NCBI RefSeq assembly: GCF_016026235.1 | Contig: NZ_CP065613.1 | DNA from: Escherichia coli | GTDB lineage: Bacteria; Pseudomonadota; Gammaproteobacteria; Enterobacterales; Enterobacteriaceae | DNA: 64,000 bases | Direction: 5' to 3' (one strand) | Shown here: positions 58,044-59,037 of the stretch, in pieces | Layout: every line of letters starts with the position of its first letter | Position numbering within the stretch: position 1 is the stretch's first letter | Notes under the pieces: generated by a model | The model's database searches: none | What the model was told of the DNA's origin: nothing | What the model saw: only the letters and a program-made list of their open reading frames with translations | Position numbers and translations under genes: made by a program

Positions 58044-59037
58044 TGCGTATTCGCTACGGTTGGGAACTGGCTCTTGCCGCACTGCTCGTTATTGAGATTG
58101 TCGCATTTGGTGCAATTAACCCGCGGATGTTAGATCTCAATATGTTGCTGTTCAGCACCAGTGACTTTATCTGCATTGGCATTGTCGCCCTACCGCTGAC
58201 GATGGTGATTGTCAGTGGCGGGATCGATATTTCGTTTGGTTCGACCATCGGCCTCTGCGCCATTGCATTGGGCGTACTGTTTCAAAGTGGTGTGCCGATG
58301 CCGCTGGCGATACTCCTGACCTTACTGCTCGGCGCATTGTGCGGGCTGATCAACGCCGGATTAATTATCTATACCAAAGTTAACCCGCTGGTGATTACGC
58401 TTGGCACGCTGTATCTGTTTGCTGGAAGCGCTCTGCTGCTTTCCGGGATGGCCGGAGCGACGGGGTACGAAGGTATTGGTGGATTCCCGATGGCGTTTAC
58501 AGATTTCGCTAACCTGGATGTGCTGGGACTCCCCGTTCCGCTGATTATCTTCCTGATATGTCTCCTCGTTTTCTGGCTCTGGCTGCATAAAACCCATGCC
58601 GGACGTAATGTGTTTTTGATTGGGCAAAGCCCGCGCGTGGCGCTTTATAGCGCGATTCCAGTTAACCGCACCTTATGTGCGCTCTATGCCATGACGGGGC
58701 TGGCGTCTGCGGTCGCCGCTGTGCTGCTGGTGTCGTATTTTGGTTCAGCACGTTCCGATCTCGGTGCGTCGTTTCTGATGCCCGCCATCACCGCCGTGGT
58801 GCTTGGCGGGGCCAATATTTATGGTGGTTCCGGTTCCATTATCGGCACCGCCATTGCGGTTTTATTAGAGTGGGATATTTGCAACAAGGTTTGCAAATGG
58901 CAGGAGTGCCAAATCAGGTGTCCAGCGCCCTTTCCGGTGCGCTACTTATCGTCGTTGTCGTAGGTCGTTCCGTTAGCCTGCATCGCCAGCAAATTAAAGA
59001 GTGGCTGGCGCGTCGGGCCAATAACCCATTGCCATAA
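58043..59037 (+). pseudogene. lsrD: AI-2 ABC importer permease LsrD with a +2-bp frameshift at about 58868-58870
   Basis: Frame 1 runs to ...GTAIAVLL then EWDICNKVCKWQ...stop at 58963; the expected C-terminus (VGYLQQGLQMAGVPNQVSSALSGALLIVVVVGRSV...) is in another frame ending at 59037. Span is 995 nt, which is 330 codons plus stop plus 2. Confidence 0.8.

Follow-up and report, generated by a model that had tools for sequence, protein, structure and literature searches.

The lsr locus in the analysed segment

The window, by which we mean the whole 64,000-nucleotide stretch of DNA that was analysed, is part of an E. coli chromosome and extends from yddL to uxaB. A K-12 origin is ruled out by its ~98.3% identity to MG1655 and by its IS insertions and deletions, and a recoded genome of the Syn61 type is ruled out by the in-frame TCG and TCA codons read at the end of lsrC. 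The AI-2 uptake genes are arranged in the lsrKR–lsrACDBFG synteny. On the minus strand, lsrK and lsrR (52611–55235) are both intact, lsrR carrying a lineage-specific L265Q substitution. The lsrACDBFG genes follow on the plus strand (55484–61287), where lsrC (57015–58043, 342 aa), lsrB (59049–60071, 340 aa) and the pair lsrF and lsrG (60098–61287) are likewise intact. Apart from lsrA and lsrD, the lsr genes have reference length and contain no stops. The lsrD locus sits between lsrC and lsrB, as read from the open reading frame map and the annotated MG1655 locus, and its product falls in a 90% identity cluster of proteins named LsrD. Its counterpart in E. coli K-12 is b1515, at the same syntenic locus, with 99.2% nucleotide identity and 330 encoded residues in a gene free of the extra AG; set against b1515, the window gene carries a +2 duplication that rewrites its last 55 residues, and lsrA is frameshifted too.

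A two-nucleotide duplication truncates LsrD

The lsrD pseudogene, which derives from the permease gene of the AI-2 ABC transporter, occupies positions 58043–59037 on the plus strand and measures 995 nt versus 993 nt in the references, bearing out an earlier note on this DNA, which had described the span as two nucleotides too long. Relative to MG1655 lsrD, the identity of 99.2% is accompanied by two gap positions, and the first stop falls at codon 307 of 331. The string that the earlier note had placed at 58865–58873, TTATTAGAGTGGGATATT, is present there and contains an AGAG tract (58867–58870, plus strand) that is a tandem duplication of a single ancestral AG, the ancestral TTAGTGG having become TTAGAGTGG. 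The note had called for a comparison with reference lsrD; in an alignment to MG1655, O145:H28 RM12761 and FDAARGOS_943, two extra bases are the sole difference at this site.

The consequence for the reading frame is a shortened open frame of 306 aa (58043–58963, plus strand), in which residues 1–275 are native and residues 276–306, 31 in all, are out of frame and end at a premature TAG stop (58961–58963). As had been claimed, the native C-terminus survives in another frame: a remnant of 55 residues (V276–P330; 58871–59037, plus strand) reads VGYLQQGLQMAG...NNPLP and ends at 59037. Deleting the two bases in silico restores a 330-aa LsrD that is otherwise free of defects. The Pfam family BPD_transp_2 (PF02653) is recognized in LsrD with E = 1e-41; in the 306-aa product it breaks off at position 238 of the 269-position profile, whereas the repaired frame is matched as far as 269 of 269, and the end of the LsrD membrane domain is therefore lost. 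Because the frame is broken after residue 275 and the Pfam domain is cut, the gene is to be regarded as a pseudogene rather than as a functional member of the family. Compared with the orthologues, the length change is not divisible by three, and it is derived in one lineage, as in ordinary frameshift pseudogenes. The lsrB start lies 85 nt past the premature lsrD stop, versus 11 nt past the native one.

A matching duplication lies in lsrA

The earlier note had also claimed a +2 lesion of the same kind elsewhere in the operon, and this is found in lsrA. The lsrA pseudogene, derived from the transporter ATPase gene, spans 55484–57021 on the plus strand with 1538 nt versus 1536, and its GAGA tract (56335–56338, plus strand) is a tandem duplication of a single ancestral GA; it is the older of the two lesions. 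Residues 1–284 of LsrA are native, after which the frame runs to a TGA stop at 56450–56452; with the two bases deleted in silico, a full-length LsrA of 511 aa is recovered. The N-terminal fragment (322 aa) retains nucleotide-binding domain 1. The break falls shortly before the second Walker A motif, and in the downstream fragment the Pfam match to the second ABC domain is without its initial 20 profile positions; in the repaired protein this domain includes the GAGRT Walker A motif (residues 299–303). The long untranslated stretch that follows the lsrA stop could possibly exert polarity on the downstream genes.

Both lesions are inherited within one clone

The exact 306-aa lsrD product is encoded on 21 contigs, drawn from separate NCBI assemblies and from Logan assemblies of SRA runs, and the exact 322-aa lsrA product on 23. 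The former has the database record STL95492.1 [Escherichia coli], which lies on a contig of 4.56 Mb, and the database names of the exact proteins are Escherichia coli. Named carriers include the NCBI assemblies GCA_001907545.1 and GCA_000805835.1 and the SRA runs ERR926423, SRR17652795 and SRR13627083. Carrier DNA is 99.9–100% identical to the window over 10–16 kb; other private differences among carriers comprise a uxaB indel and variants of the autotransporter gene described below. Since the carriers differ from one another by private SNPs, they are distinct isolates of one clone.

Beyond these carriers, neither insertion was present in any of the 5,426 complete RefSeq E. coli genomes searched, a collection without Shigella records. 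Among the 4,333 complete E. coli genomes that have the stretch, the best match at the lsrD site covers 199 of 201 positions, the missing two being the gap; at the lsrA site, too, the best complete-genome match is short only of the gap positions. A 25-mer across the lsrD lesion had no match in GTDB species representatives or in JGI metagenomes, both scans having been run without a wild-type positive control. Both lesions are confined to this clone.

lsrA broke before lsrD

One clone member, GCA_902503985.1 (its contig is labelled L014), reveals which of the two hits came first. This genome has the lsrA +GA, which is found in all clone members, together with an intact lsrD (330 aa) and one private SNP. 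It also has the three SNPs of the window lineage at 53156 (synonymous, in lsrK), 54442 (LsrR L265Q) and 55478 (in the lsrA ribosome-binding region). When FDAARGOS_943 and MG1655 serve as outgroups, the most parsimonious order is an lsrA break followed by an lsrD break in a sub-branch. As GCA_902503985.1 carries the lsrA lesion only, the lsrD hit therefore postdates the presumed death of the transporter. It is formally possible that the ancestral lsrD state of this genome is an exact reversion from AGAG to AG. A course from lsrA to lsrD is that expected once a multi-subunit transporter loses an essential subunit and the others drift.

Two of the shared substitutions are of note in their own right. 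The change at 55478 is a G-to-A 6 nt upstream of the lsrA start, converting GGGGG to GGGAG in the ribosome-binding region; this change and LsrR L265Q are fixed in all clone members along with the lsrA frameshift.

Gene decay in the window and in the sister genome

Several other genes of the window are damaged. A window-lineage-specific deletion of 7,355 bp relative to FDAARGOS_943 and MG1655, with its junction at 15166, has taken away 43% of dosC at the 3' end, the whole of dosP, ddpX, ddpA, ddpB and ddpC, and ~19 nt at the start of ddpD. In ddpF (13280–14206, minus strand), a nonsense change derived in the window lineage, R119* (CGA to TGA), lies at 13852, and the D,D-dipeptide transporter has thus been hit twice, by the ddpF stop and by the adjoining deletion. 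An IS2 element (36356–37686; open reading frames of 136 and 301 aa) interrupts the fimbrial adhesin gene ydeQ. An ISEc20 element of the IS110 family (46747–48197; transposase of 398 aa at 46975–48171) lies in an ECSE_1600-family autotransporter gene in the K-12 yneO region; it is one of the window lineage's own additional lesions relative to FDAARGOS_943, and strain EC22 has an ISEc20 copy at the same site. The autotransporter gene further shows a 17-bp deletion at ~49923 and two tandem 64-nt copies (51897–52024) that are 95% identical to each other. The 17-bp deletion and the extra 64-nt copy are found in the window and in clone members L004 and L013; L005, L006, L012, L014 and MG1655 have one 64-nt copy, no deletion and an open frame of 1282–1289 aa. 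The autotransporter gene is thus a further multi-hit pseudogene in the sub-branch. The ddpF nonsense change, the 7.4-kb ddp–dos deletion and the IS insertions indicate general genome decay.

Two other features of the window merit mention. At 39016–42428, the window encodes a fimbrial usher of full length (883 aa) and a chaperone (239 aa); in K-12 no more than a truncated ydeT is left at this place, and it is K-12 that represents the deleted state. The fdnG gene (3728–6775) has an in-frame TGA at codon 196, at the same position as in MG1655 and FDAARGOS_943, which we take to be the selenocysteine codon of formate dehydrogenase-N and not a lesion.

The closest complete genome is FDAARGOS_943 (NZ_CP065615.1), whose identity to the window is 99.85–99.95% for the most part and 99.76% in the interval 52979–64000. 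At its lsr locus (NZ_CP065615.1 1276650–1282032), lsrA and lsrD are intact, in contrast to the window, and its own, independent lsr lesions lie elsewhere: lsrK has suffered both a ~9-kb deletion that reaches into it from hipA and a -1 frameshift, and lsrC has lost 15 bp in frame. Frameshifts or stops also affect its maeA, ddpB, digH, pqqL and ydeN genes, and the IS2 insertion in ydeQ is common to both genomes; the window lineage and the FDAARGOS_943 branch are both decaying genomes. The 155-kb plasmid of FDAARGOS_943 (NZ_CP065616.1) encodes ipaH9.8, ospG, ospC2, sepA, virK and capU and carries IS600 and ISSfl3, a Shigella/EIEC invasion-plasmid gene set; in the 150 kb of it that were inspected, the annotation lists neither mxi–spa genes nor ipa genes of the entry region. 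On account of this gene set, FDAARGOS_943 is an invasive-type E. coli, and it is solely from this genome that we infer an EIEC-type assignment for the window clone. Another strain, EC2641, matches the first 25 kb of the window at 99.8% and has an intact lsrA, but it is uninformative at lsr because it is only 98.8% identical there.

Known losses of the lsr operon

[quoted passage not shown] Of 34 lsr cases, 26 were large truncations, in which IS elements frequently flanked the operon, and 6 of 34 lsr pseudogenes were due to small indels, mostly changes of 1 or 2 bp. The window resembles those cases in the independent, rapid and multi-hit loss of AI-2 reception while neighbouring genes persist, in having small indels of 1–2 bp among the causes, and in the tie to invasive, Shigella-like lineages. 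It differs from most of them in that the operon is physically complete and bears only two dinucleotide duplications, and in that an intermediate genome in the clone shows which hit came first. Frameshifted lsrB, lsrD and lsrA genes are also known from the Bacillus cereus group (Rezzonico and Duffy 2008, PMC2561040), where lsr transporter pseudogenes are likewise read as decay under reduced selection, although the phylum is different and the lesions are unrelated. The window case is a new allele of an already documented lsr decay.

Origin of the paired duplications

The earlier note had offered two explanations for the pair, relaxed selection with slippage-type mutations or a systematic sequencing or consensus artefact. 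Were the latter true, the two extra bases would be absent from the organism's DNA; the equal size and similar composition of the lesions and their absence from every complete RefSeq genome would fit such an error. However, at least six assemblies or runs under separate names have the same bases, among them assemblies made straight from three different SRA runs; one clone member carries the lsrA lesion without that in lsrD, no further +2 indel occurs in the ~52 kb of the window alignable to FDAARGOS_943, and the other full-length genes checked have reference length. Because of the recurrence in separate datasets and the lack of any other such indel, we reject the artefact, whose probability we consider negligible. 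A suspiciously equal pair of indels can thus be resolved without resequencing, by finding the exact shortened product in independent public assemblies. Hardly more credible is the idea that LsrD continues to be made, through programmed ribosomal frameshifting or a reversible AG/AGAG switch. The one-copy and two-copy states do both exist within the clone, and the lsrA lesion yields a rare AGA codon (reading CTG AGA CGC). Yet the site is not conserved, given that the lesion is lacking in FDAARGOS_943, in one clone member and in all complete genomes, and the AGAG tract, with two units only, is neither a hypermutable repeat nor a many-unit contingency tract. No prfB-like or other canonical +1 slippery motif was seen by eye on reading TTA TTA GAG TGG in lsrD, with the lesion in TTA GAG TGG, or CTG AGA CGC in lsrA; moreover, lsrA is broken too. 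The 21 two-unit carrier contigs, set against a small one-unit intermediate group, are consistent with a single mutation event.

Selection and mutational bias are better weighed against the counts of events. On the window branch, 13 polarised SNPs and 2 small indels fell in 51.7 kb of aligned sequence, and 5 of these 15 events lie in lsr, which makes up 16% of that sequence (P = 0.08); a second enrichment test gave 10 of 40 (P = 0.10; post hoc and with tiny counts). Both small indels lie in lsr (P = 0.026, again post hoc and from tiny counts), and lsrACDB has two small indels and no substitution, somewhat above the neutral indel-to-SNP expectation, an excess to which positive selection or mutational bias may contribute. 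Inactivation of AI-2 import might have been positively selected in an invasive-type lineage and have driven the hits in both lsrA and lsrD. Sister branches have been hit in lsr independently (lsrA and lsrD here, lsrK and lsrC in FDAARGOS_943), both small indels of the window lineage fall there, Brito et al. (PMC3595036) judged lsr pseudogenization “too fast to be a neutral process”, and no Shigella or AIEC strain in their set had the full operon. Against this, a second hit in lsrD gives no obvious added benefit with lsrA already broken, the overall enrichment in lsr is weak, unrelated genes of the window decay too, and the test is post hoc on tiny counts; we regard adaptive loss as unlikely, at perhaps a one-in-four level of plausibility. 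A good deal less probable is a lineage mutational process favouring +2 purine-dinucleotide duplications, for example a transient polymerase or repair defect on the branch to the clone, of which the pair would be the signature rather than a coincidence. The only two small indels of the window lineage are both +2 GA/AG tandem duplications, and the five on the FDAARGOS_943 branch are +1, +1, +1, -1 and -15 (one of them, at 21012, unpolarised), a contrast reaching P = 0.048 in a Fisher test that is post hoc and has tiny counts. But the sample is two events, the lesions arose at different times, 1–2 bp indels are an ordinary class among lsr pseudogenes (PMC3595036), and a search within 300 bp of either lesion for a templating direct or inverted copy or a quasi-palindrome returned only one 7-mer chance match. 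The earlier note had called the pair unusual: the lesions do share size and composition, but the impression rests on two events, and the supposed rarity is overstated in view of the indels of this size already recorded. The shared +2 size and purine composition are a curiosity and weak as evidence.

The event statistics fit a relaxation of constraint following the first hit and leave modest room for selection or bias. In our assessment, the lsrD lesion is very probably a genuine, vertically inherited loss-of-function frameshift in a clone whose AI-2 importer was already dead through lsrA. The other explanation in the earlier note, relaxed selection with slippage-type mutations, is supported by what we found: both lesions are tandem dinucleotide duplications inherited in a clone with other gene decay, a clone member with the lsrA lesion only exists, and the lsr locus of FDAARGOS_943 is broken in different ways. 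A replication error would have doubled the single AG in lsrD, and 31 unrelated residues now stand in place of the final 55 of the permease, which form the end of its membrane domain; a like error would earlier have turned GA into GAGA in lsrA, a short way ahead of the second Walker A motif. Simple replication misalignment is the likeliest cause of both duplications, because the dinucleotides pre-existed once and no templating copy lies within 300 bp. With the transporter dead, purifying selection on lsrD would have ceased and the second lesion would have been free to fix, presumably as a neutral change, in a clone that belongs to a decaying, IS-rich lineage of the kind in which lsr is typically lost.

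Implications for AI-2 uptake

The domain truncations, considered together with the published phenotypes of K-12 lsrA and lsrD deletions, suggest that AI-2 import has been lost in the clone. K-12 transporter knock-outs remove AI-2 less efficiently (PMC3595036), and by analogy with those deletions the strain is predicted to clear extracellular AI-2 poorly. Importance beyond annotation is little; in annotation, lsrA and lsrD of the clone should be marked as pseudogenes. The locus adds an unusually clean example to the repeated loss of AI-2 reception in E. coli, notably in invasive, Shigella-like lineages, and the surviving intermediate genome reveals the order of decay, from the ATPase gene to the permease gene.
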